DNA of 64,000 nucleotides, from the NCBI RefSeq assembly GCF_003334765.1, contig NZ_QOWT01000002.1; one strand, 5' to 3'. How positions within the stretch are numbered: position 1 is the first letter of the stretch; the number at the start of each line of letters is the position of its first letter. A model generated the notes under the pieces. That model saw only the letters and a program-made list of their open reading frames with translations, was not told the DNA's origin and ran no database searches. Below are positions 29,049 through 55,142 of the stretch, piece after piece. Source of the stretch: Escherichia coli. GTDB taxonomy: Bacteria > Pseudomonadota > Gammaproteobacteria > Enterobacterales > Enterobacteriaceae. Both the position numbers and the translations under genes were made by a program.

Positions 29049-30569
29049 TTAAAGGTGCAAAGACGCAAGACGCAGAATTTCGTTTTGCGTTGTTGTTTTT
29101 GTATCGACAATTCCGGAAACGAGACCATTGCTCATGACCAGAATACGGTCTGTTATCCCTAACAACTCAGGCATTTCAGAGGAGATAATAATAATCCCCT
29201 TGCCTTTCTTCGCCAGTTCGGCAATTAACTGATAAATTTCAAACTTCGCCCCGACATCAATACCGCGCGTCGGTTCATCGAGCATTAATATTTCTGGTTG
29301 CGTTAGTAGCCAGCGACCAATAATCACCTTTTGCTGATTACCACCGGAGAGCGAACCAATTTGCGTCCGATGACCCGGCGTTTTTACCCGCATCGAATCA
29401 ATCACCCACTGGGTATCGCTTTTCATCCGCGAGTTATCCAGTAAACCAACTTTATTTTTGTAGTTGCGAATATTGGAAATTAACGAGTTAAAACCAATAT
29501 CCAGATAGGCATAAATTCCCGTTGAGCGGCGCTCCTCAGTTACCAGTGCAAATCCATGGTTTATGGCTTCGTTGGCATTATGGTTATTGATCTGTTTGCC
29601 GTGCAACGTTATGGTGCCAGCCGATTTCTCGCGAATACCAAATAACGTCTCAACAATATCGGTACGTTTCGCCCCCACCAGACCGGCAATACCGAGGATC
29701 TCCCCTTTATGCAGATCAAACGAGACATCGCGAATCGACGGCTGGCGCAGTGACGTCAGGTTACGTACCTCGAGGATGACTTCGCCCGGTTTGTTTTCTT
29801 TGTCAGGGAAACGCTGGTTAAGAGAACGCCCAACCATCATGGCGATGATCTTGTCCATCGTCAGTCCTGCCAGCGGTTCGGTGGCGATCCACTGACCGTC
29901 GCGCAATACGGTAACTTCATCACATAACTGGAAGATTTCTTCCATTTTATGCGAGATATAAACAATACCGCAGCCGCGCTCTTTTAATTTACGAATAATA
30001 GTGAACAGATGATTGACCTCTTTTTCGGTTAACGAAGAAGTCGGTTCATCCATAATCACAATTTTCGCGTTATAGGAAAACGCTTTGGCGATTTCGATCA
30101 TCTGCATTTGCGAAACGGATAATGTGCCGACGCGCGCACGCGGATCGATATCAATATCCAGTTCGTCAAAAATCGCTTTGGTTTCGCGGTACATTTTGTC
30201 CTGATCGACAAACATGCCTTTGGTGGGATATCGCCCCAGCCACATGTTATCCATCACCGAACGTTGTAATACCAGGTTTAACTCCTGGTGTACCATCGAA
30301 ATACCATTTTCCAGGGCTTCTTTTGCAGAATGGAAATCGATCTCTTTACCCTGGAATAAAATGGTGCCGGAGTCTTTTTGATAAATACCAAACAGGCATT
30401 TTAATAATGTCGATTTTCCTGCACCGTTTTCCCCCATTAATGCATGGATAGAATGTGGCCGGACTTTTAAATTAACGTTATCAAGTGCCTTAACACCAGG
30501 AAAGGACTTGTTGATACCGCTCATTTCCAACAAGTATTCCCCGGAGGACGGAGTCGTTGAGCTGACCAT
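29049..30569 (-). CDS. mglA: Galactose/methyl-galactoside ABC transporter ATP-binding protein MglA
   Basis: 506 aa with duplicated ABC cassettes. Confidence 0.95.
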
Positions 30570-40016: not shown

Positions 40017-40898
40017 TTAACGCGGCACATTTGCGGGATCGCAATAGTCCAGAAAGCGCCGTAGCGCGTTGGAAAGGTGTTTTTGCCGATGATGTATACG
40101 CCACAACGTACGCATCAGGCGCGGCAGAGGGACCGCAACTTCACTTAATGTGCCTGCCTGCAATTGATCTTCAATCACACGTCGCGACAGGCAACTAATT
40201 CCCAACCCATGACGCACCGCATGTTTGATTGCCTCGGAGTTACCTAATTCCATCGCCATCTCAAACTTCGGTAAATGTGACAGCAACAGATAATCGACAA
40301 TCTCCCGCGTGCCGGAACCGCGTTCACGCAGGATCCACGGCGCAGCGGCCAGCTGTTCTAAGGTGACCGGACCACGGGCCAACGGCGAAGTCGGCGCGGC
40401 GAAAACCACCAGCTCGTCTTCCAGCCACGGTTCAGAAATGATTTCAGTGCTGTGGCACGGTCCTTCAATAAAGCCAATATCAACGCGGAAATCCAGCACC
40501 GCTTGCATCACGTCCTGGCTATTCCCAACGCTAAGTTCAATCGGCAACTGCGGATAATCATGGCGATAACGGGCGATAACTGCAGGCAGAATGTAGTTAC
40601 CGATGGTACTACTGGCATAGATACGAATCGCGCCGTTGTCTTCGCGAAACAGTTGTTCGATTTCAACCGCCTGTTCAAGCAATGCCAACGCACGCGGATA
40701 GAGCAGCCGCCCGTGTTCATTAACAACCAGTCTTTTCCCCACGCGATCAAACAGTTGCACGCCAAGCTGCCCTTCCAGGTCGGTCAAGGCTGCGCTCACT
40801 GCTGATTGCGACAACGCCAGCATCACCGACGCCTGGGTGGTTGATCCACTTTTCAATACTTCTGCAAAAACTTCCAACTGCCGGAGGGTGATGTGCAT
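40017..40898 (-). CDS. yeiE: LysR-family transcriptional regulator YeiE
   Basis: N-terminal LTTR HTH; divergent from yeiH. Confidence 0.85.
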
Positions 40899-40996: not shown

Positions 40997-42046
40997 ATGA
41001 CGAATATCACCTTACAGAAACAACATCGTACACTGTGGCATTTTATTCCGGGGTTAGCCCTGAGTGCAGTTATCACCGGGGTCGCCCTGTGGGGTGGTTC
41101 CATTCCCGCGGTTGCGGGTGCCGGGTTTAGTGCCCTCACCCTCGCAATCTTGTTGGGGATGGTTTTAGGCAACACCATCTATCCGCACATCTGGAAAAGC
41201 TGTGACGGTGGTGTGCTGTTTGCCAAGCAATATTTATTACGTCTGGGTATCATTCTTTATGGCTTCCGTCTGACGTTCTCGCAAATTGCCGATGTCGGTA
41301 TCAGTGGGATCATCATTGACGTGTTGACGCTGTCCAGTACCTTCCTGCTGGCTTGCTTCCTGGGGCAGAAAGTGTTTGGTCTGGATAAGCACACCAGCTG
41401 GTTGATCGGTGCCGGTAGCAGTATCTGTGGTGCTGCCGCGGTACTGGCGACTGAGCCGGTAGTGAAAGCGGAAGCCAGTAAAGTAACCGTGGCTGTTGCA
41501 ACCGTTGTTATCTTCGGGACCGTCGCGATTTTCCTCTACCCGGCGATATATCCGCTGATGTCTCAATGGTTTAGTCCGGAAACTTTCGGTATCTACATTG
41601 GTTCTACTGTGCACGAAGTGGCGCAGGTGGTGGCGGCAGGTCATGCCATCAGCCCGGATGCGGAAAACGCAGCAGTTATTTCCAAAATGCTGCGCGTGAT
41701 GATGCTGGCTCCGTTCCTCATCCTGCTGGCGGCGCGTGTTAAACAGCTGTCTGGGGCGAACAGCGGCGAGAAAAGCAAAATCACTATTCCGTGGTTTGCC
41801 ATCTTGTTCATCGTAGTTGCCATCTTTAACTCGTTCCACCTGTTACCGCAGAGCGTGGTGAACATGCTGGTAACGCTGGATACCTTCCTGCTGGCAATGG
41901 CGATGGCGGCGCTGGGTCTGACCACTCACGTCAGCGCGCTGAAAAAAGCTGGGGCGAAACCTCTGCTGATGGCACTGGTACTGTTTGCCTGGCTGATTGT
42001 TGGTGGTGGTGCGATTAACTATGTGATTCAAAGCGTCATCGCATAA
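40997..42046 (+). CDS. yeiH: UPF0324 inner membrane protein YeiH
   Basis: 349 aa polytopic membrane ORF. Confidence 0.85.
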
Positions 42047-42119
42047 ACCACTACATCTTGCTCCTGTTAACCCGCTATCATTACCGTTTTCCTCCAGCGG
42101 GTTTAACAGGAGTCCTCGC

Positions 42120-42977
42120 ATGAAATACATTGGAGCGCACGTTAGTGCTGCTGGCGGTCTGGCAAATGCCGCAATTCGCGCCGCCGAAATCGACGCAACC
42201 GCGTTTGCCTTGTTCACCAAAAACCAACGTCAGTGGCGTGCCGCACCGCTCACGACGCAAACCATCGATGAATTCAAAGCCGCCTGTGAAAAATATCACT
42301 ACACATCGGCGCAAATTCTTCCCCACGACAGTTATCTGATTAACCTCGGACATCCGGTCACTGAAGCTCTGGAAAAATCGCGCGATGCCTTTATAGATGA
42401 AATGCAGCGTTGCGAACAGCTGGGGCTTTCTTTGCTCAACTTCCACCCTGGCAGCCATCTGATGCAGATTTCAGAAGAGGATTGCCTTGCGCGTATTGCC
42501 GAATCCATCAACATTGCGCTGGATAAAACTCAAGGTGTGACAGCGGTGATAGAAAACACCGCCGGTCAGGGCAGTAACTTAGGGTTTAAATTCGAACATC
42601 TCGCGGCGATTATCGACGGCGTGGAAGATAAATCCCGCGTCGGCGTCTGCATTGATACCTGCCATGCTTTCGCTGCCGGGTATGATTTGCGTACTCCAGC
42701 CGAATGCGAGAAAACATTCGCGGATTTTGCCCGTACTGTCGGCTTTAAGTATCTGCGCGGGATGCACCTTAACGATGCGAAAAGCACCTTTGGCAGCCGC
42801 GTTGACCGCCATCATAGCCTCGGTGAAGGCAATATCGGTCATGATGCGTTCCGCTGGATCATGCAGGACGACCGTTTCGACGGCATTCCGCTGATCCTCG
42901 AAACCATCAACCCGGATATCTGGGCAGAAGAGATCGCCTGGCTGAAAGCGCAACAAACTGAAAAAGCGGTAGCCTGA
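42120..42977 (+). CDS. nfo: Endonuclease IV (AP endonuclease)
   Basis: 285 aa; recognised sequence. Confidence 0.95.
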
Positions 42978-42979
42978 AG

Positions 42980-44068
42980 ATGAATAACCGGGAAAAGGAG
43001 ATCCTTGCAATTTTACGGCGTAACCCGCTGATTCAGCAGAACGAAATTGCGGACATGCTGCAAATCAGCCGTTCGCGCGTTGCGGCGCATATTATGGATT
43101 TAATGCGCAAAGGCCGGATTAAAGGCAAAGGTTACATTCTCACCGAGCAGGAATACTGCGTAGTGGTGGGGACAATCAATATGGATATTCGCGGGATGGC
43201 GGATATCCGTTACCCGCAATCGGCTTCTCATCCCGGTACAATTCATTGCTCAGCGGGCGGCGTGGGACGCAACATCGCCCACAATCTGGCGCTGTTAGGC
43301 CGTGACGTCCATTTGCTTTCAGTGATTGGCGATGACTTTTATGGCGAAATGCTCCTGGAAGAAACGCGCCGTGCCGGCGTGAATGTCTCCGGCTGCGTTC
43401 GTTTGCATGGTCAAAGCACATCGACGTATCTGGCAATTGCCAATCGAGACGATCAAACCGTGCTGGCGATTAACGATACCCATCTGCTGGAACAGTTGAC
43501 ACCGCAACTACTGAACGGGTCGCGCGATTTACTTCGTCATGCGGGCGTGGTACTGGCTGATTGCAACCTGACAGCCGAGGCGCTGGAATGGGTCTTTACC
43601 CTCGCTGATGAAATCCCGGTGTTTGTCGATACCGTTTCAGAATTCAAAGCGGGCAAAATCAAACACTGGCTGGTGCATATTCACACCCTGAAACCCACTT
43701 TACCGGAGCTGGAAATTTTATGGGGACAGGCGATCACCAGCGATGCTGACCGTAATACCGCAGTGAATGCATTGCATCAGCAAGGTGTTCAGCAACTGTT
43801 TGTTTATTTGCCCGATGAGTCAGTTTATTGCAGCGAAAAGGATGGAGAACAATTTTTGCTGACCGCGCCAGCGCATACGACAGTAGACAGTTTTGGTGCT
43901 GACGATGGTTTTATGGCGGGCCTGGTATATAGCTTTCTTGAAGGATACAGTTTCCGCGACAGCGCCCGTTTTGCGGTAGCCTGCGCGGCAATTTCGCGCG
44001 CCAGCGGCAGCTTAAACAACCCTACCCTGTCTGCCGATAACGCGCTTTCATTAGTGCCAATGGTGTAA
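42980..44068 (+). CDS. yeiI: PfkB-family sugar/nucleoside kinase with N-terminal HTH, YeiI
   Basis: HTH N-terminus plus ribokinase-like domain (GGVGRNIA, GADD); starts 2 nt after nfo stop. Confidence 0.85.
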   Translation: MNNREKEILAILRRNPLIQQNEIADMLQISRSRVAAHIMDLMRKGRIKGKGYILTEQEYCVVVGTINMDIRGMADIRYPQSASHPGTIHCSAGGVGRNIAHNLALLGRDVHLLSVIGDDFYGEMLLEETRRAGVNVSGCVRLHGQSTSTYLAIANRDDQTVLAINDTHLLEQLTPQLLNGSRDLLRHAGVVLADCNLTAEALEWVFTLADEIPVFVDTVSEFKAGKIKHWLVHIHTLKPTLPELEILWGQAITSDADRNTAVNALHQQGVQQLFVYLPDESVYCSEKDGEQFLLTAPAHTTVDSFGADDGFMAGLVYSFLEGYSFRDSARFAVACAAISRASGSLNNPTLSADNALSLVPMV

Positions 44069-44072
44069 CAAT

Positions 44073-44168
44073 GTTGCCGGATGCGACGCTTAACGCGTCT
44101 TATCCGGCCTACAAATCAGGCAATTTCAGCAAGTAAATGTAGGCCTGATAAGCTTGCGCATCAGGCAA
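44073..44168. repeat. REP pair (convergent)
   Basis: GCCGGATGCGACGC..TATCCGGCCTAC and an inverted partial copy between yeiI and nupX. Confidence 0.8.
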
Positions 44169-44174
44169 TGACAC

Positions 44175-45425
44175 TCAAGCTAAACCAATAAAGAACCCGG
44201 CAATGGTCGCACTCATCAAGTTGGAAAGCGTCGCCGCCGCCAGCGCCCGTAAACCAAGCTGGGCGATTTCCGGCGCACGGTGTGGCGCAACCGCAGAAAA
44301 CGCCCCCACCACCACCCCGATAGAACCAAAGTTAGCGAAACCGCACAACGCGAAGGAAATAATCGCCACAGTTTTAGCATCGAGAGTGCCAGCCGTTTGC
44401 AGATAGGGTGAGAAATTGAGATAAGCGACAAATTCATTTATTGCCAGTTTCTGTCCAATCAAACTCCCGGCAAGATTCGCATCACTCCAGTCCACACCCA
44501 TCACCCACGCCAGTGGAGCCAGCAGGTAACCTAAAATGGACTCCAGCGAGGCATGTTCAAAACCAAACCAGCCACCAACGCCGCCGATAATACCGTTAAT
44601 CAACGCAATTATTGCAACAAATGCCATCACCACTGTTGCCACACCTGCGGCGATTTTCAGCCCGGTCATTGCCCCTGTCGCAGCGGCTTCAATAATGCTT
44701 TTTGGCGGTGTTTCGGTGAAAGAGAGGTTATTAAAGGAAACCTGCGAAGATTCCGTTGCCGGGCTTAACAGGCGGGCAAACAAGATCCCGCCAGGGATCG
44801 CCATTAATGATGCCGCCAGCAGATATTCCACAGGCACGCCCAGTGCGGCGTAACCAATCATTGTCGAACCAGCAATCGAGGCCATGCCACTACAAATCGC
44901 TGTAAATAATTCATTGCGATTCAGACGATCGATAAAGGGTTTGACGATTGCCGGAATTTCGTTTTGCCCGAGGAAAATGGTGGTGACCGCGACGAATGAC
45001 TCGATCTTGCTGATATTTAATGCTTTCTGGAAGATACCGCCGAGAATTCGAATTAAAATCCCCATCACACCGATGTAGTAGAGAATACTCACCAGCGCGG
45101 TGACGAAGATAATTGCCGGTAACACCCTGAAACCAAAGATAAATCCTGCACCATCAAATAAGGTATCCATTTTCGGTCCGACCAGAGAACCGAAGATAAA
45201 TGCGCTACCCGCGTCGCTGTACGCCATCACTTTATGCACGCCAAAAGCGACTTTTTCAGCGACCCAACGCCCTGGCGGTAACCAAAGCATAATGCCGCCA
45301 ATCACGACCTGTAACACTAACGCCGCGCCAACGGTACGCAGGCTGATCTTCTTCTTGTTTACTGACAGTAAAAACGCAATCGTCAGCAATACCACCATTC
45401 CCAGAACACTTCTCATGACATCCAT
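44175..45425 (-). CDS. nupX: NupC-family nucleoside permease NupX
   Basis: 416 aa polytopic transporter; close paralogue of psuT in this window. Confidence 0.85.
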   Translation of the reverse strand: MDVMRSVLGMVVLLTIAFLLSVNKKKISLRTVGAALVLQVVIGGIMLWLPPGRWVAEKVAFGVHKVMAYSDAGSAFIFGSLVGPKMDTLFDGAGFIFGFRVLPAIIFVTALVSILYYIGVMGILIRILGGIFQKALNISKIESFVAVTTIFLGQNEIPAIVKPFIDRLNRNELFTAICSGMASIAGSTMIGYAALGVPVEYLLAASLMAIPGGILFARLLSPATESSQVSFNNLSFTETPPKSIIEAAATGAMTGLKIAAGVATVVMAFVAIIALINGIIGGVGGWFGFEHASLESILGYLLAPLAWVMGVDWSDANLAGSLIGQKLAINEFVAYLNFSPYLQTAGTLDAKTVAIISFALCGFANFGSIGVVVGAFSAVAPHRAPEIAQLGLRALAAATLSNLMSATIAGFFIGLA

Positions 45426-45524
45426 AGTGATTATCTCTTCATGTCATATTGGGCGACGGCTTTCTGCCCATCAGAAATAGCCAGGCCTGCATCTTGCGAT
45501 ACCGGCCCGGCTTGTTATCAACAC

Positions 45525-46466
45525 TTAATGGGTTTTGATGTAGCCGCGCACGCACTCTTCGACTAATCCCCAGAACCAGTCTGTATCAATAGTGATGCCG
45601 ACTTTGGTATTGGCGGGCTTGCCAAGAACGCCCAGCTCGTCGCAGACGGTACGCCCATAGCAAGGGCCACTGTTGACGTCCACTTCGACGTACATCTCCT
45701 GGGTTTTAATGCCATCAGGGTTAATCAGATAACCGATGCAGGTGGCGTCGTGCACCGGGCCGCCAGCAAGGCCGTAGTTTTCGAACTGCGTTTTGAGAGT
45801 GAAGTTCATGATGTCGCTGAACAGCTCTCCGGCGGGGCCGCCTGCCCTTTCCATCCGAGCAATCACGTCCGGGGTGCAAACGGTCTGGTTGGTGAGATCG
45901 AGGCCCATCATCACTAATGGAACGCCGGAGGTGAACACTACGCGTGCGGCTTCCGGGTCGGCAAAGATGTTGAACTCGGCAGATGGCGTGAAGTTGCCTG
46001 TACCGTAAGCGCCGCCCATTAGCACAATTTCACGGATTTTGGGCAGGATCGCGGGTTGCATACGCATTGCCACCGCGATATTTGAAAGCGGACCAACCGG
46101 CACCAGAGTGATATCGCCATCGCTTGCCATCAGGGTATCAATGATATATTTCACCGCATGAGTGCTTTCTGCCTGGCGGGTCAGCGGCTCGAATACCGGG
46201 CCATCCAGTCCGGTTTCACCGTGAATATTATCGGCAACGATTTGTTGACGCATAATGGGCTGCGGCATCCCCGCATAAACCGGAACATTAATCTCCAGTT
46301 TCTGGCAAACATTCAGGCCATTAATTAATGTTTTATCAAGCGTCTGATTACCCGCTACAATAGTGATGCCTAATAAATCTATTGCCGGATGTTTCGCCGC
46401 CATCATTATAGCAATAGCATCATCATGACCCGGATCACAATCCAGAATAATTTTTCTCTTTTCCAT
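45525..46466 (-). CDS. rihB: Pyrimidine-specific ribonucleoside hydrolase RihB
   Basis: N-terminal DxDxxxDD calcium/ribose motif (DCDPGHDDA). Confidence 0.9.
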
Positions 46467-46634
46467 TGTTTATTTCCTCTGTTTCCAGTTGCGTTATTTT
46501 TCCTACAGCAAAGAAAATTCGACCGGGCCGATGATTGAATCTTAACAACAGCGTACGTATGCTAAATATGAGAAATCTCATAGCGGATAAACATCGTGAA
46601 AGAAATCCACAATAATGATCTTAAGCAGCAATTG

Positions 46635-47294
46635 ATGAGTGAATCCGCGTTTAAGGATTGCTTTTTAACGGATGTTTCAGCCGATACGCGGCTGTTTCAT
46701 TTTTTAGCGCGTGACTACATTGTGCAGGAAGGGCAACAGCCGTCCTGGCTGTTTTACCTGACGCGAGGCCGCGCCAGGCTTTACGCCACGCTAGCTAATG
46801 GTCGCGTGTCGCTGATCGATTTCTTTGCCGCCCCCTGTTTTATTGGCGAGATTGAGTTAATCGATAAAGACCATGAACCGCGTGCGGTGCAGGCTATTGA
46901 AGAGTGTTGGTGCCTTGCGCTCCCTATGAAACATTACCGTCCGCTGTTATTAAACGACACGCTATTTTTACGAAAACTCTGCGTCACCTTAAGTCATAAA
47001 AATTATCGTAATATTGTTTCTTTAACTCAGAATCAATCATTTCCGTTAGTGAATCGCCTGGCAGCATTTATATTACTCTCGCAGGAAGGTGATCTTTATC
47101 ACGAAAAGCATACGCAAGCGGCAGAGTATTTAGGCGTTTCTTATCGACATCTTTTATATGTTCTCGCGCAGTTCATTCACGACGGTTTATTAATTAAAAG
47201 CAAGAAAGGGTATCTCATTAAAAACAGAAAGCAGTTGTCAGGACTGGCGCTGGAGATGGACCCGGAGAATAAATTCTCCGGGATGATGCAGTAA
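46635..47294 (+). CDS. yeiL: CRP/FNR-family transcriptional regulator YeiL
   Basis: cNMP-binding-like domain plus C-terminal HTH; alternative GTG start at 46596. Confidence 0.8.
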
Positions 47295-47364: not shown

Positions 47365-48615
47365 TTACGCCAGACCAATAAAGAACCCGGCAATAGTCGC
47401 ACTCATCAGGTTGGAAAGCGTTGCTGCTGCCAGCGCCCGTAAACCAAGCTGGGCGATTTCCGGCGCGCGTTTTGGCGAAATAGCCGAAAATGCGCCAACG
47501 ACAACACCGATAGAACCAAAGTTAGCAAAACCACAAAGCGCAAAGGAGATAATCGCAATGGTTTTCACTTCCAGCGTGCCGCCCGTTTGCAGGTATGGGG
47601 AGAAACTCAGGTAAGCGACGAATTCGTTAATCGCCAGTTTCTGCCCAATCAGGCTACCCGCAAGATTGGCATCACTCCAGTCCACACCCATGATCCACGC
47701 CAGCGGTGCCAGCACATAGCCAAAAATACTTTCCAGAGAGGCATTGGCGAAACCAAACCAGCCGCCAATTCCGCCGATAATGCCGTTGATCAGCGCAATA
47801 ATTGCGACAAACGCCATTACCACCGTCGCCACACCAGCGGCGATTTTTAGCCCGGTCATCGCACCGCTCGCCGCCGCTTCGATAAAGCTTTTTGGCGGCG
47901 TTTCGCTGAACGACAGATTTTCAAATGTGACCTGCGAAGGCTCGGTTGCCGGGCTAAGAATACGTGCAAACAAAATCCCGCCAGGGATCGCCATCAGCGA
48001 TGCCGCTAACAGGTAGTCAATTGGTACGCCCATTCCGGCATAACCAATCATCATCGAACCAGCAATGGACGCCATCCCGCTACAAATTGCGGTAAACAAC
48101 TCGTTGCGATTCATGCGATCGATAAACGGTTTAACGATCGCCGGGATCTCATTTTGCCCGAGGAAAATAGTAGTAACCGCAACAAAAGATTCGATTTTGC
48201 TGATGTTGAGGGCTTTCTGGAAAATGCTGCCAAGGATGCGAATCAGCAGCCCCATCACGCCAATGTAGTACAGCAGACTGATGAGCGCAGTAACGAAAAT
48301 AATCGCCGGAAGTACGCGAAAGGCGAAGATAAAACCCGCACCGTCAAACAGGACATCCATTTTCGGCCCAACCAGCGAACCAAAAATGAAGGCGCTACCG
48401 GCATCACTGTAAGACATCACTTTATGAACGCCTAATGCCGCCTGTTCTACTGCCCATTTTCCCGGTGGGAAGTAGAGCATGATGCCACCAATAGCGATTT
48501 GCAGCAGCAGTGCGGCTCCAACCGTGCGCAAACTGATGCTCTTTTTATTCACTGACAACAGAAATGCTATTGCCAGTAACACCACCATCCCCACAACACT
48601 TCTCATTATATCCAT
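47365..48615 (-). CDS. psuT: NupC-family pseudouridine/nucleoside transporter PsuT (YeiM)
   Basis: 416 aa; close paralogue of nupX (by-eye estimate near 85-90 percent aa identity). Confidence 0.85.
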   Translation of the reverse strand: MDIMRSVVGMVVLLAIAFLLSVNKKSISLRTVGAALLLQIAIGGIMLYFPPGKWAVEQAALGVHKVMSYSDAGSAFIFGSLVGPKMDVLFDGAGFIFAFRVLPAIIFVTALISLLYYIGVMGLLIRILGSIFQKALNISKIESFVAVTTIFLGQNEIPAIVKPFIDRMNRNELFTAICSGMASIAGSMMIGYAGMGVPIDYLLAASLMAIPGGILFARILSPATEPSQVTFENLSFSETPPKSFIEAAASGAMTGLKIAAGVATVVMAFVAIIALINGIIGGIGGWFGFANASLESIFGYVLAPLAWIMGVDWSDANLAGSLIGQKLAINEFVAYLSFSPYLQTGGTLEVKTIAIISFALCGFANFGSIGVVVGAFSAISPKRAPEIAQLGLRALAAATLSNLMSATIAGFFIGLA

Positions 48616-48708
48616 AATGATTTTCCCTTCATGCCGGTAAATCCGGCGTCAGCGCCAGGTTTTGGTATGCTTGATGAGTACGGGCGACGGCTTTCTGCCC
48701 GTCAGAAA

Positions 48709-49647
48709 TTAACCCGCGAGACGCTGATATTCTTTGGCAATTTCGCTCGCCAGAATGGCGTTGTTGAACACCAGCTGGATGTTGGATTTCAGGCTGTCAC
48801 CGCCGGTCAGTTCAGCAACGCGCGCCAGCAGGAATGGCGTACTTTCTTTACCAATGACTCCCTGAGCTTCAGCTTCAGCTACCGCCTGATCGATCGCCGC
48901 ATTGATAGTGTGTTCCGGCATAGCAAACTGTTCCGGGATCGGGTTCGCTACCACGAGGCCACCGTTCAGACCGCTTTGCCATTTCACCGCCATTGCACGG
49001 GCAATTTCGCTGGCGCTGTCGAGACGAATGCTGACGTCAAACGGGCTGGTGCGGCAGAAAAACGCAGGCAGCGCTTTAGTCTGATAGCCAATTAACGGCA
49101 CACCGAAGGTTTCTAAATACTCAGTGGTTAATCCTAAATCGAGAATAGATTTCGCCCCGGCACAAACAACGGTGACATTAGTATTTGCCAGTTCTTGCAA
49201 ATCGGCAGAAATATCGAAGGTATGTTCCGCCCCGCGATGCACACCACCAATTCCCCCGGTGGCAAATACTTTAATTCCGGCAAGCGCCGCAATAATCATC
49301 GTTGAAGCCACAGTGGTTGCGCCATTTTTTCCGGCGGCAACAACAAAAGGTAAATCGCGACGACTAACTTTGGTCACGTTATGCCCTTCACGACCCAGTA
49401 ATTCAATTTCTTCTTTGCTTAACCCCACTTTCATCACGCCGCCAATAATGGCGATCGTGGCAGGTACAGCGCCCTGTTTACGAATAGTTTCTTCAACTTC
49501 AATTGCGGTCTGGGCATTTTGTGGGAACGGCATCCCGTGAGAAATAATGGTCGATTCCAGCGCCACAACCGGTTTTTTGTTTTTTAAAGCGTCCTGCACT
49601 TCCGGGGAAATTTGTAATAATTCAGGGGAAATTTTTAATTCAGACAT
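48709..49647 (-). CDS. psuG: Pseudouridine-5-phosphate glycosidase PsuG (YeiN)
   Basis: Indigoidine-synthase-A-like fold; recognised sequence. Confidence 0.9.
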   Translation of the reverse strand: MSELKISPELLQISPEVQDALKNKKPVVALESTIISHGMPFPQNAQTAIEVEETIRKQGAVPATIAIIGGVMKVGLSKEEIELLGREGHNVTKVSRRDLPFVVAAGKNGATTVASTMIIAALAGIKVFATGGIGGVHRGAEHTFDISADLQELANTNVTVVCAGAKSILDLGLTTEYLETFGVPLIGYQTKALPAFFCRTSPFDVSIRLDSASEIARAMAVKWQSGLNGGLVVANPIPEQFAMPEHTINAAIDQAVAEAEAQGVIGKESTPFLLARVAELTGGDSLKSNIQLVFNNAILASEIAKEYQRLAG

Positions 49648-50576
49648 TCTGCGTTCTCCACTAACGATATAACGTTGGCAATCGATAAATCGGGGTTATT
49701 GGTGTATTCACAGGAGAGCGCCATTGACGAACATCCCTGTGCGAAACGAACAGATTCGGCAAACGGCATTCCGTCTACCCAACACGAAGCAAGTCCCGCC
49801 ATCATGGCATCGCCCGCTCCGGTAACATTAATAACATTGGTTTTGATCGGCGCAGACCAGCCACTTTCACCGCTGATATCGCTGTAATAAACGCCGTCGC
49901 CGCCCATGCTCAATACCAGTCGGTTCAGGCCATGTTGATGGAACCAGGCAGCAACTTTTGCCACATCTTCACGCCCTGACAGCGCAATCCCACTCAGGGT
50001 TTCCGCTTCAAGGCGGTTTGGCTTGAGAGTGTGGATCTGATTTAGACGGTCGCGCACTTTGACACATTTCCATGCCGAAACCGGATCGACAAATACGGGT
50101 ACGTTGGCGGCATTATCCAGAATCCATGCCAGTGCCTCTTCACTGATATTACAGTCCGCGACAATGACCTTTGCCCTCTGAATAAATTCACCGTGCTGTG
50201 CGAGATATTCAGCTGTAATAGCGTTGCTAATATTCATGTCATTTATAGCAACCAGCATTTCACCGGTATTATCGAGTAATGATAAATAACTCGACGTATT
50301 TTCTCCCGGCACAATCAGGCATTTATCGACATAAACGCCAGATTGATTGGTTTGCGTTAGCAGCGATTGACCATAAAAATCACTGCCTACGGCGCTCAGT
50401 AGCCAGGCTTTGTTACCCAGCAACGCCAGGTTTTGTGCAATATTGCGCCCTACTCCACCAGGCGTAAATTTTATTTTACCTGGATTTGAATCCGCATAAT
50501 TTAATGATTCATGTGAATATCCGGCGACATCAATATTCGCCGAACCTATAATTACGACATAATCCTTTTCGCGCAT
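49635..50576 (-). CDS. psuK: Pseudouridine kinase PsuK (YeiC)
   Basis: PfkB family (GGVGRNIA, TGAGDAMMAG); 13-nt overlap with psuG. Confidence 0.9.
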   Translation of the reverse strand: MREKDYVVIIGSANIDVAGYSHESLNYADSNPGKIKFTPGGVGRNIAQNLALLGNKAWLLSAVGSDFYGQSLLTQTNQSGVYVDKCLIVPGENTSSYLSLLDNTGEMLVAINDMNISNAITAEYLAQHGEFIQRAKVIVADCNISEEALAWILDNAANVPVFVDPVSAWKCVKVRDRLNQIHTLKPNRLEAETLSGIALSGREDVAKVAAWFHQHGLNRLVLSMGGDGVYYSDISGESGWSAPIKTNVINVTGAGDAMMAGLASCWVDGMPFAESVRFAQGCSSMALSCEYTNNPDLSIANVISLVENAECLN

Positions 50577-50814
50577 AGCACGTCCTCTGGTAAAAAATTA
50601 CCAACCCTGTCAATCCACAAGAATATAGATACTGCAAAGACGGTTTAAACATGTGTTCATATTTAAACATGTGCTCATAGTATGCATGTTTTACGTAAAG
50701 TAAATTACCGCCAGAGAGGCAAAATGGGCAGATTTGAGCAGGCTCACAAAATGCGATTAAATGCCTGAATTACAAAAGCGAGGAATTTGTGACGGGATGC
50801 ACAGAACAGAACAA

Positions 50815-54877: not shown

Positions 54878-55142
54878 AAAGCATAATACTTCTGTTTCAG
54901 CACGCAAGGAAAGCCGTAAAGTTATGAGCAAAAGTTTGATGTGCTGCACAATTTTTTGCCATTTTTCCTAATTGCTGATGGGAAAATCCGTTATCAGCAA
55001 TTTCATTTCAGCAGCGTCAGCAGCCAATCAGCAACAGTGAAATGGCATTTTGACTATTCGTGGCGCTTTTGATTTCGCTGTCTGTTTATTTTCTGACAAG
55101 CAGCGTAAACTCCGCGTCTTCCTCTTCCAGTGATCGACCAGC

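Follow-up and report, generated by a model that had tools for sequence, protein, structure and literature searches.

Why does Escherichia coli, which has the kinase PsuK for pseudouridine catabolism, keep a second PsuK-like protein that begins with a helix-turn-helix domain? The protein is YeiI, whose gene is one of those in E. coli K-12 that still lack a known function and lies in a stretch of 64,000 nucleotides of E. coli DNA (RefSeq assembly GCF_003334765.1, contig NZ_QOWT01000002.1) that we analysed as a whole and refer to as the window. Based on comparisons of domain architecture, motifs, gene contexts and upstream regions, we consider it reasonably probable that YeiI is a pseudouridine-responsive regulator, most likely a repressor, of psuK-psuG-psuT, and that it arose by duplication and division of labour. 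The features of the window that this proposal needs first are as follows.

42980-44068, plus strand: yeiI coding sequence, 362 amino acids, from the open reading frame list
42980-43123, plus strand: winged helix-turn-helix (wHTH) domain, amino acids 1-48; Pfam HTH_24 (PF13412), E 2.3e-10
43151-44023, plus strand: PfkB (PsuK-like) domain, amino acids 58-348; Pfam PF00294, E 2.5e-67
43697-43699, plus strand: codon T240, which replaces the Asn of the NXXE motif and gives KPTLPE (T240-L-P-E243)
43895-43906, plus strand: codons G306-A307-D308-D309, GADD in place of GAGD, with the catalytic Asp (D309) kept
47365-50576, minus strand: psuT-psuG-psuK, transcribed from psuK through psuG to psuT; the predicted target of YeiI

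The fold of YeiI and its altered phosphoryl-transfer site

A preliminary description of this DNA proposed an N-terminal helix-turn-helix followed by a PfkB kinase domain, and both Pfam and the AlphaFold2 fold agree with it. Besides HTH_24, the N-terminus has weaker Pfam matches to HTH_11 and MarR_2. That description made its proposal depend on whether the N-terminus folds as a helix-turn-helix, and the AlphaFold2 model (pLDDT 89.9, pTM 0.82) predicts helices at residues 3-14, 20-27 and 31-43 and a beta-hairpin at 47-54, which is to say a winged helix, with pLDDT 78-92 across this block. The PfkB part of the model superimposes on E. coli PsuK (7vtd) with a target TM-score of 0.95 and a root-mean-square deviation of 1.6 Å, and Foldseek comparisons with PsuK and ribokinases gave target TM-scores of 0.8-0.95; the structure search returned no Protein Data Bank (PDB) entry that spans both domains. 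Paralogy to PsuK, also suggested at the outset, is borne out by a BLASTP alignment with the PsuK of the window (49635-50576, minus strand), which shows 39% identity over 307 amino acids (E 7e-76) and contains the GGVGRNIA, NLALLG, VFVD.VS and IHTLKP blocks. In NCBIfam terms, YeiI fits its own equivalog model ('sugar kinase', NF007416) with 811 bits against a cut-off of 561 over residues 1-362 of 362, and it scores 255 bits with the pseudouridine kinase model (NF007355, EC 2.7.1.83), below the cut-off of 540, where the PsuK of the window scores 714.

The wHTH-PfkB architecture is not peculiar to YeiI. A profile search with the protein returned 9471 relatives, and among the best 150 cluster representatives most are ~360 amino acids long and align from YeiI residue 1, and therefore carry both domains. 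Our sample of genomic contexts comprised 80 loci of fused proteins, plus Yersinia. In ~66 of the 70 loci outside Enterobacteriaceae the fused gene stands immediately 5' of a same-strand psuG, often with a CNT nucleoside transporter gene next after psuG, and such operons occur across Gammaproteobacteria, Betaproteobacteria and Clostridia. These canonical fused proteins retain KPNxxE, TGAGD and the pseudouridine hallmark residues. By its motifs and contexts, the wHTH-PsuK fusion is the predicted ordinary pseudouridine kinase of many bacteria; none of its members is known to have been characterised experimentally.

The canonical proteins, found for example in Yersinia, Serratia, Hafnia, Photorhabdus, Vibrio, Shewanella, Aeromonas, Neisseriales and Clostridia, resemble YeiI in architecture and length at 37-53% identity, and they share with it a near-invariant recognition helix and the operator type CAAAC-N4-GTTTG discussed below. 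Unlike YeiI, they keep the NXXE and GAGD motifs, and their operon encodes no other kinase. Operon membership is itself a trait of pseudouridine kinases: the canonical fused homologues do share an operon with psuG, whereas yeiI lies on the opposite strand, convergent with psuT-psuG-psuK.

What YeiI has preserved is the place where the nucleoside binds. PsuK contacts pseudouridine through S30, N143, K170, Y97, N112, N14 and D256, of which the catalytic D256 also binds O5', and M114 lines the uracil pocket (PMC9061257). These contact residues, including D256, are kept in YeiI and its orthologues, and the corresponding pocket in YeiI consists of S83, N196 and K223, plus N67, D69, Y150 and N165. 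The hallmark residues S83, N196 and K223 (S30, N143 and K170 of PsuK) are kept in the YeiI orthologues with rare exceptions (P0202).

The phosphoryl-transfer site has been altered. In PfkB enzymes NXXE serves Mg and phosphate binding, the glycines of GXGD bind the donor phosphate, and the Asp of that motif is the catalytic base (PMC5931981). YeiI has TXXE in place of NXXE: 98% of YeiI-clade sequences have Thr at the first position, where PsuK and 98% of canonical fused homologues have Asn. In GXGD, the first Gly (G306) and the catalytic Asp (D309) are present, and the second Gly has become Asp (D308) in 100% of the YeiI clade, against Gly in 100% of canonical homologues. The resulting signature of NDT, KPT-x-x-E and D-x-F-G-A-D-D is carried by YeiI orthologues at 64-100% identity in Escherichia, Salmonella, Citrobacter, Enterobacter, Leclercia, Pseudocitrobacter and others, and is absent from every canonical homologue. 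When 43 YeiI-clade sequences were compared with 49 canonical ones, only five columns proved conserved within each group and different between them, namely, with PsuK numbering and the canonical residue first, M107T, M114T, N187T, N250D and G255D. Three of these (N187T, N250D and G255D) belong to the phosphate/Mg site, and M107T and M114T line the base pocket. The functional shift is apparently concentrated in the phosphoryl-transfer site, with the nucleoside pocket preserved, and phosphoryl transfer by YeiI has probably been lost or strongly reduced.

Measured against the enzyme itself, YeiI shares the PfkB fold of E. coli PsuK (also YeiC; PDB 7vtd, 7vva and 7vkp) and of the plant enzyme PUKI, and it has in common with PsuK the hallmark Ser/Asn/Lys, the catalytic Asp, K185 and the chromosomal neighbourhood. 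Unlike PsuK, it has the extra winged helix, TXXE and GADD, Asp at N250 and Thr at M107 and M114, it stands outside the psuG operon, and it does not replace PsuK genetically (PMC12506659).

One must ask whether YeiI might nonetheless be an active bifunctional protein, a kinase and DNA-binding regulator with a rewired metal/phosphate site whose substrate is pseudouridine or another modified pyrimidine nucleoside. D309, K238, E243 and GGVGRN are strictly conserved in the YeiI clade, and the co-occurrence and conservation of N187T with G255D/N250D fit a remodelled site more readily than a decaying one. Changes of the NXXE Asn to Asp are tolerated in active family members (PMC5931981), and M107T and M114T, which alter the base pocket, could signal a new substrate. 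Nevertheless, the invariant donor-phosphate Gly of GXGD has been exchanged for Asp, which adds bulk and negative charge, and YeiI falls well short of the pseudouridine kinase cut-off. A clade member with an equal gene layout and an equal operator (P0005) has lost both the catalytic Asp and the Lys equivalent to K238. Furthermore, a 2025 paper cites 'pseudouridine kinase' as a wrong machine-learning label for YeiI, because a psuK mutant cannot use pseudouridine (PMC12506659), and YeiI therefore does not substitute as a kinase. We regard an active kinase as unlikely, and the earlier proposal of a nucleoside kinase is doubtful to the same extent: the kinase fold on which it was built stands, and the catalytic motifs that would support the activity are changed in all YeiI orthologues.

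Other relatives with dead motifs are P0029, P0067 and P0086. Two of them, with the motifs ALSLPE and MGTSG (P0029; locus L089, 3325-4452) and VLSEAE and NGAAS (P0067; locus L090, 180-1292), adjoin ABC-transporter permeases or a nucleoside hydrolase locus, not psuG, which suggests that proteins of this type may be further sensor-only members with other regulons.

Two candidate operators at the psuK promoter

If YeiI is a regulator, its DNA target should be recognizable from its relatives. The recognition helix of YeiI lies around S30-R31-S32-x-V34-A35-x-H37-I38, and in 26 fused proteins ranging from E. coli to Shewanella these positions vary little or not at all. YeiI and the canonical fused proteins are therefore expected to recognise DNA with the same specificity. 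We examined the 200 nt upstream of 70 canonical fused genes and found CAAACA/TGTTTG in 53 of these regions, compared with 2-3 of 70 in two control sets. By eye, one to three copies of CAAAC-N4-GTTTG stand just upstream of the start codon, with variants such as GGACA..TGTTTG and TAAACA..TGTTTA. A palindromic 16-bp position weight matrix (PWM) was built from 110 sites, with Enterobacteriaceae left out of the training (16 bits; consensus ACAAACATATGTTTGT). Scores of 10 bits or more are reached in 59-61 of the 70 canonical upstream regions, and in 62 of 70 loci the best match of the ~19-kb locus falls within 300 nt upstream of the fused gene.

When this matrix was applied to the window, its best match and its fourth best match fell 18 bp from each other within the psuK-fruA spacer, at the predicted psuK promoter.

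50645-50660, minus strand: predicted operator O2, ATGAACACATGTTTAA on the psuK strand; ~+10 to +25 from the predicted start; 14.1 bits, best match of the 64-kb window
50663-50678, minus strand: predicted operator O1, ATGAGCACATGTTTAA on the psuK strand; overlaps the -10 end and the predicted start; 10.5 bits, fourth best match
50677-50704, minus strand: predicted psuK promoter; -35 TTTACT (50699-50704), 16-nt spacer, -10 TACTAT (50677-50682)
50733-50748, minus strand: CRP-like site TGTGA-N6-TCAAA, TGTGAgcctgcTCAAA; resemblance to the consensus only; ~70 nt upstream of the predicted psuK start

In random sequence of the same composition, 0.43 matches of at least 14 bits are expected per 64 kb, and only ~0.003 in the 422-nt psuK-fruA spacer. 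The placement of O1 and O2 relative to the predicted -10 and +1 would be the geometry of a repressor. Upstream regions of psuK in Enterobacteriaceae share, in order, a CRP-like site, TTTACT, TACTAT and two palindromes. O1 is conserved across these promoters, and the CRP-like site in Citrobacter, Enterobacter and Leclercia. YeiL, the neighbouring CRP/FNR-family protein, might just as well act at the latter site.

A published observation falls within this promoter. During long-term stationary-phase evolution an A-to-C single-nucleotide polymorphism (SNP) at -126 psuK/+297 fruA was found in three of four populations (PMC7858067). It maps to base 50702 of the window, the third base of the predicted -35, and changes TTTACT to TTGACT. 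The same position is also listed among the parental differences from the reference (PMC7858067). We rejected this SNP as evidence for the operators, given that it lies in the -35 hexamer, outside both operators, and that its position is among the listed parental differences; it weakly supports the placement of the promoter and nothing beyond that.

The match at psuK recurs in most loci where the kinase and the DNA-binding protein are encoded separately. In 13 of 14 such split-type sequences the top match of the locus lies upstream of the psuK that lacks a helix-turn-helix. The distance to psuK is 58-93 nt in 10 of 11 further Enterobacteriaceae loci, ~260 nt in Affinibrenneria (L087) and ~50 nt in the metagenomic contig that encodes P0005 (L088). 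In five unfused psuK-psuG loci whose recovered contig has no YeiI-type gene, no site was found upstream of psuK. Within the window, no match above 2 bits occurs in the spacers yeiH-nfo, nfo/yeiI, yeiI-nupX, nupX-rihB, rihB-yeiL, yeiL-psuT or psuT-psuG, and both a nupX/rihB target and autoregulation of yeiI were rejected on these scores. Here YeiI differs from the canonical proteins, whose operator stands before their own gene and suggests autoregulation, whereas YeiI has no site before itself or nfo. The preliminary description had named nupX-rihB as a possible target, and this part is not supported: the two strong matches are at the psuK promoter, the nupX-rihB block is specific to E. coli, and ~975 E. 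coli genomes that lack nupX keep yeiI. Its more general idea, that ligand binding by this protein is coupled to DNA binding, is supported.

It could still be that another transcription factor binds the palindromes at the psuK promoter, and that YeiI regulates other genes such as nupX-rihB, nfo or itself. The binding of YeiI to the operators is deduced by comparison, yeiI adjoins nupX-rihB in K-12-type E. coli, and the psuK promoter has a CRP-like site and possibly sites for further factors. In addition, spacerless copies of the motif in Aeromonas (CAAACGTTTG) resemble LacI/PurR-type boxes. However, the motif accompanies the fused wHTH from Clostridia to Proteobacteria and accompanies YeiI-type genes in the split systems, and it is missing before psuK in the five loci that have no such gene in the contig. 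The spacers around nfo, yeiI, nupX, rihB and yeiL hold nothing above 2 bits, most genera with yeiI lack the nupX-rihB-yeiL block, and ~18% of E. coli lack nupX. We judge this explanation to be improbable, and continue with YeiI as the predicted regulator of psuK-psuG-psuT.

Several further observations concern the motif and the promoters. A search of the window with the rigid consensus CAAACNNNNGTTTG, allowing up to two mismatches, gave 31 matches when 40 were expected and none at the psuK promoter, and it was discarded for the PWM. Other PWM matches of 10-11 bits in the window are at 41739-41754, 54924-54939 and 30208-30223, one of which sits inside yeiH and is present in strain Nissle too; the weaker matches fit chance, with ~2.8 expected at 10.5 bits or more per 64 kb. 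In Xenorhabdus (L027, L029, L040, L042-L044), a second fused wHTH-PfkB paralogue with canonical motifs is encoded away from psuG, and its upstream region has no clear CAAAC-N4-GTTTG sites. In the psu promoters of Enterobacterales (L002, L015-L020, L023), the region from ~-150 to -60 relative to the fused gene has the shared blocks TCACAAAA, TTACGATC and CTTTACT. The block TTACGATC occurs in 13 loci and in none of the controls. These blocks lie outside the operator model and may be sites for CRP or other factors together with the -35 hexamer.

The gene neighbourhood of yeiI

With which genes is yeiI associated over evolutionary distance? Window bases 42000-45500 are 100% identical to several complete E. 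coli genomes, in which yeiH, nfo, yeiI ('sugar kinase') and nupX are annotated. The neighbouring features that matter here are listed below.

42120-42977, plus strand: nfo (endonuclease IV) coding sequence, from the open reading frame list and annotated as nfo in the identical E. coli genomes
42103-42131: promoter-like site at the 5' end of nfo
42975-42982, plus strand: junction of the nfo stop and the yeiI start, TGA-AG-ATG, with a 2-nt gap
44069-44174: spacer between the convergent yeiI and nupX, with REP-like palindromic sequence; likely transcript end
44175-47294: block of nupX (minus), rihB (minus) and yeiL (plus), between yeiI and psuT in E. coli only

In the split system of Enterobacteriaceae, psuK has no helix-turn-helix and YeiI retains one. 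The gene order yeiE (minus), yeiH (plus), nfo (plus), yeiI (plus), psuT (minus), psuG (minus), psuK (minus) is found in E. albertii, five species of Citrobacter, Enterobacter, Leclercia and one Enterobacteriaceae metagenome-assembled genome, and outside E. coli every genus examined has yeiI next to psuTGK and pointing towards it. The fused gene is likewise convergent with CNT-psuG-psuK in Affinibrenneria and in the contig that encodes P0005. From these contexts across the split lineages it follows that yeiI has its conserved partner in the psu operon and in neither nfo nor nupX/rihB. The psuK-psuG-psuT order in turn matches the wHTH-psuK-psuG-CNT transporter operon of Yersinia.

The nupX-rihB-yeiL block is missing between yeiI and psuT in E. 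albertii, Citrobacter, Enterobacter and Leclercia. Its first gene, nupX, is a duplicate of psuT (~79% nucleotide identity) that has been cut to a 66-nt remnant in Nissle (EcN) and is apparently absent from ~975 of 5426 complete E. coli genomes. By comparison, yeiI is present in 5423 of these 5426 genomes. In the spacer between yeiI and nupX, the REP-like palindromic repeats read gccggatgcgacgc...gcgtcttatccggcctac, and in other genera a simple hairpin takes the equivalent place.

The link to nfo is of a different kind. The nfo TGA at 42975-42977 is followed by AG and then by the yeiI ATG at 42980, precisely the 2-nt separation reported earlier, and all 12 Enterobacteriaceae sequences compared (from E. 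coli, E. albertii, Citrobacter, Enterobacter, Leclercia and UBA3516) have a gap of 0-3 nt. No terminator-like site was found at the junction. Owing to the short gap and the absence of such a site, co-transcription of nfo and yeiI, possibly with translational coupling, is likely, so that the co-transcription put forward at the outset is plausible and nfo is the probable source of yeiI transcription. Genomic SELEX assigned an RNA polymerase 'constitutive promoter' site to nfo>yeiI (PMC3946193), and an internal yeiI promoter is therefore also possible. In Affinibrenneria and in the contig that encodes P0005, the YeiI-type gene stands beside psuTGK with no nfo upstream, and the nfo linkage is not essential. 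Since it is absent in these two cases, the pairing may only supply low constitutive expression of yeiI. We found no functional reason for pairing yeiI with a DNA-repair gene.

Within E. coli itself, two deeply divergent haplotypes exist at 42980-44068 and at 47365-50800 (L001). The yeiI of ~3361 genomes is 97-100% identical to that of the window, and ~2060 genomes, including Nissle and JJ1886, carry a divergent allele with 81-82% nucleotide and 86% protein identity. A comparison of the window with Nissle gives 80.6% identity for psuK and 89-90% for psuG/psuT, with no alignment of the psuK promoter, in contrast to 99.9-100% for yeiE, yeiH, nfo, rihB, yeiL and fruA. The alleles of the Nissle type are similar to E. 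albertii. A strict co-variation of yeiI and psuK alleles was rejected, given that 2060 genomes have the divergent yeiI and ~1208 have no match to the K-12-type psuK.

This divergence bears on a sceptical explanation, in which YeiI is a decaying or redundant paralogue without a specific role and its helix-turn-helix a vestige of the ancestral fusion. The non-canonical catalytic motifs, the unusually deep allelic divergence within E. coli and the lack of any YeiI phenotype or function in the literature searched would all fit. Yet yeiI is full length in 5421 of 5426 complete genomes, and the two allele classes differ at 19% of nucleotides and only 14% of the protein, with all signature residues kept in both. 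The derived signature and the recognition helix are also conserved across genera at 64-100% identity, which indicates purifying selection. Decay is a highly improbable account of YeiI, and a selected role in controlling the psu operon remains the explanation that we favour.

A proposed division of labour and its meaning

How might such a regulator work? A YeiI dimer would set its two winged helices on the 16-bp imperfect palindromes at 50645-50660 and 50663-50678, over the -10 and +1 of psuK, and the PsuK-like domain, with its complete pseudouridine pocket, would be the sensor. In PsuK, pseudouridine shifts the dimer such that marker residues ~66 Å apart come to ~51 Å (PMC9061257). A similar lid and dimer closure, driven by pseudouridine in YeiI, could reposition the DNA-binding domains and free the operator. 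The architecture, the motif changes and their conservation, the gene contexts and the position and conservation of the operator are observed here; that YeiI binds DNA, the sign of its regulation, its effector and its loss of activity are inferred. The negative charges of D303 and D308 at the anion hole may disfavour both the gamma-phosphate of ATP and the phosphorylated product, which would suit a receptor of the free nucleoside.

The ancestor would have been a bifunctional wHTH-PsuK protein that headed, and probably autoregulated, the psu operon, a state that would persist in Yersinia, Serratia, Vibrio, Shewanella, Aeromonas and many Clostridia. Following a duplication, psuK, the copy within the operon, would have lost its wHTH, and yeiI would have kept the wHTH and the pocket while giving up canonical catalysis, with its expression probably coming by read-through or translational coupling from nfo. 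In a neighbour-joining tree of kinase domains, the PsuK of the split lineages, which has no helix-turn-helix, groups as the sister of the fused PsuK proteins from Yersinia, Serratia, Hafnia, Photorhabdus, Pasteurella and Gilliamella, and the YeiI-type proteins, P0208 and P0005 among them, fall into a single clade. A tblastn search upstream of E. coli psuK gave nothing significant for a wHTH relic.

Several considerations weigh against our proposal. Each link from YeiI to DNA, or to psu expression, is drawn by comparison. The psuK promoter and start are themselves predicted, and the word 'repressor' depends on their predicted geometry. The PWM was trained on the upstream regions that lie behind the figure of 62 of 70 loci, such that the independent test consists of the 14 split-type sequences, most of which are interrelated, and the negative controls number only five loci on short contigs, with a YeiI-type gene possible elsewhere in each genome. 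The tree has no support values and places the YeiI clade on a long branch, and is suggestive only. In YeiI, K238, E243, the catalytic D309 and the GG motif are also retained and strongly conserved, the paired N187T and G255D could form a compensated metal site with residual or altered kinase activity, and the base-pocket changes M107T and M114T could mean that the ligand is other than pseudouridine itself.

Existing knowledge provides two analogies. The ROK repressors NagC and Mlc join an N-terminal winged helix to a sugar-kinase-like domain of the actin-like ATPase fold, and they sense a pathway metabolite and control catabolic and transport genes while a separate paralogue performs catalysis. 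YeiI has a comparable layout, and its separation from PsuK would be an analogous split between paralogues, but it has the ribokinase/PfkB fold, is unrelated in sequence and still has the catalytic base. Trigger enzymes and enzyme-repressor fusions such as BirA, NadR and PutA combine an enzyme and a helix-turn-helix in one polypeptide and link flux to transcription. By analogy, this state is the likely ancestral one, represented by the canonical fused wHTH-PsuK proteins; unlike BirA, NadR and PutA, Enterobacteriaceae have apparently divided the functions between the paralogues YeiI and PsuK.

The 2022 paper on the PsuK structure describes YeiI as 'uncharacterized' (PMC9061257), the 2025 paper likewise treats it as uncharacterised (PMC12506659), and the protein appears in a published list of hypothetical transcription factors. 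In the searchable literature we found no functional study of YeiI (b2160) or of HTH-PfkB regulators, and no regulator of psuK-psuG-psuT; regulon databases lay outside this search, and an earlier computational prediction is possible. A 2019 paper counts 'YdcI and YeiI' among the LysR-type regulators studied with ChIP-exo (PMC6698644). YeiI is not LysR-type, and we set this report aside as almost certainly a slip for the neighbouring yeiE (40017-40898, minus strand). The yeiI gene and its domain composition were already annotated, and the function assigned to YeiI, its operator and the scenario for its evolution appear to be new.

More tentatively than for YeiI itself, we suggest that wHTH-PfkB proteins may be a widespread family of enzyme-regulators for pseudouridine and nucleoside catabolism. 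In Enterobacteriaceae, a bifunctional kinase-repressor could have been duplicated, after which PsuK lost its DNA-binding domain and YeiI became a non-catalytic or pseudokinase-like pseudouridine receptor that represses psuKGT via two operators; P0005, P0029 and P0067 might then have completed the loss of catalytic residues.

The proposal names a protein, two operator sequences, a candidate ligand and a set of diagnostic residues, and can be tested at the bench within days. If true, it would document a PfkB-fold sensor domain in transcription factors, and it would show, step by step, how a bifunctional enzyme-regulator can divide its roles between two paralogues. In strains engineered to produce pseudouridine, psuK, psuG and psuT are already being manipulated (PMC10552469, PMC12500856, PMC13090712), and YeiI with its operators could be applied there. 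YeiI with O1 and O2 would be a natural pseudouridine-responsive switch, a repressor/operator pair that might be used as a biosensor or control element.

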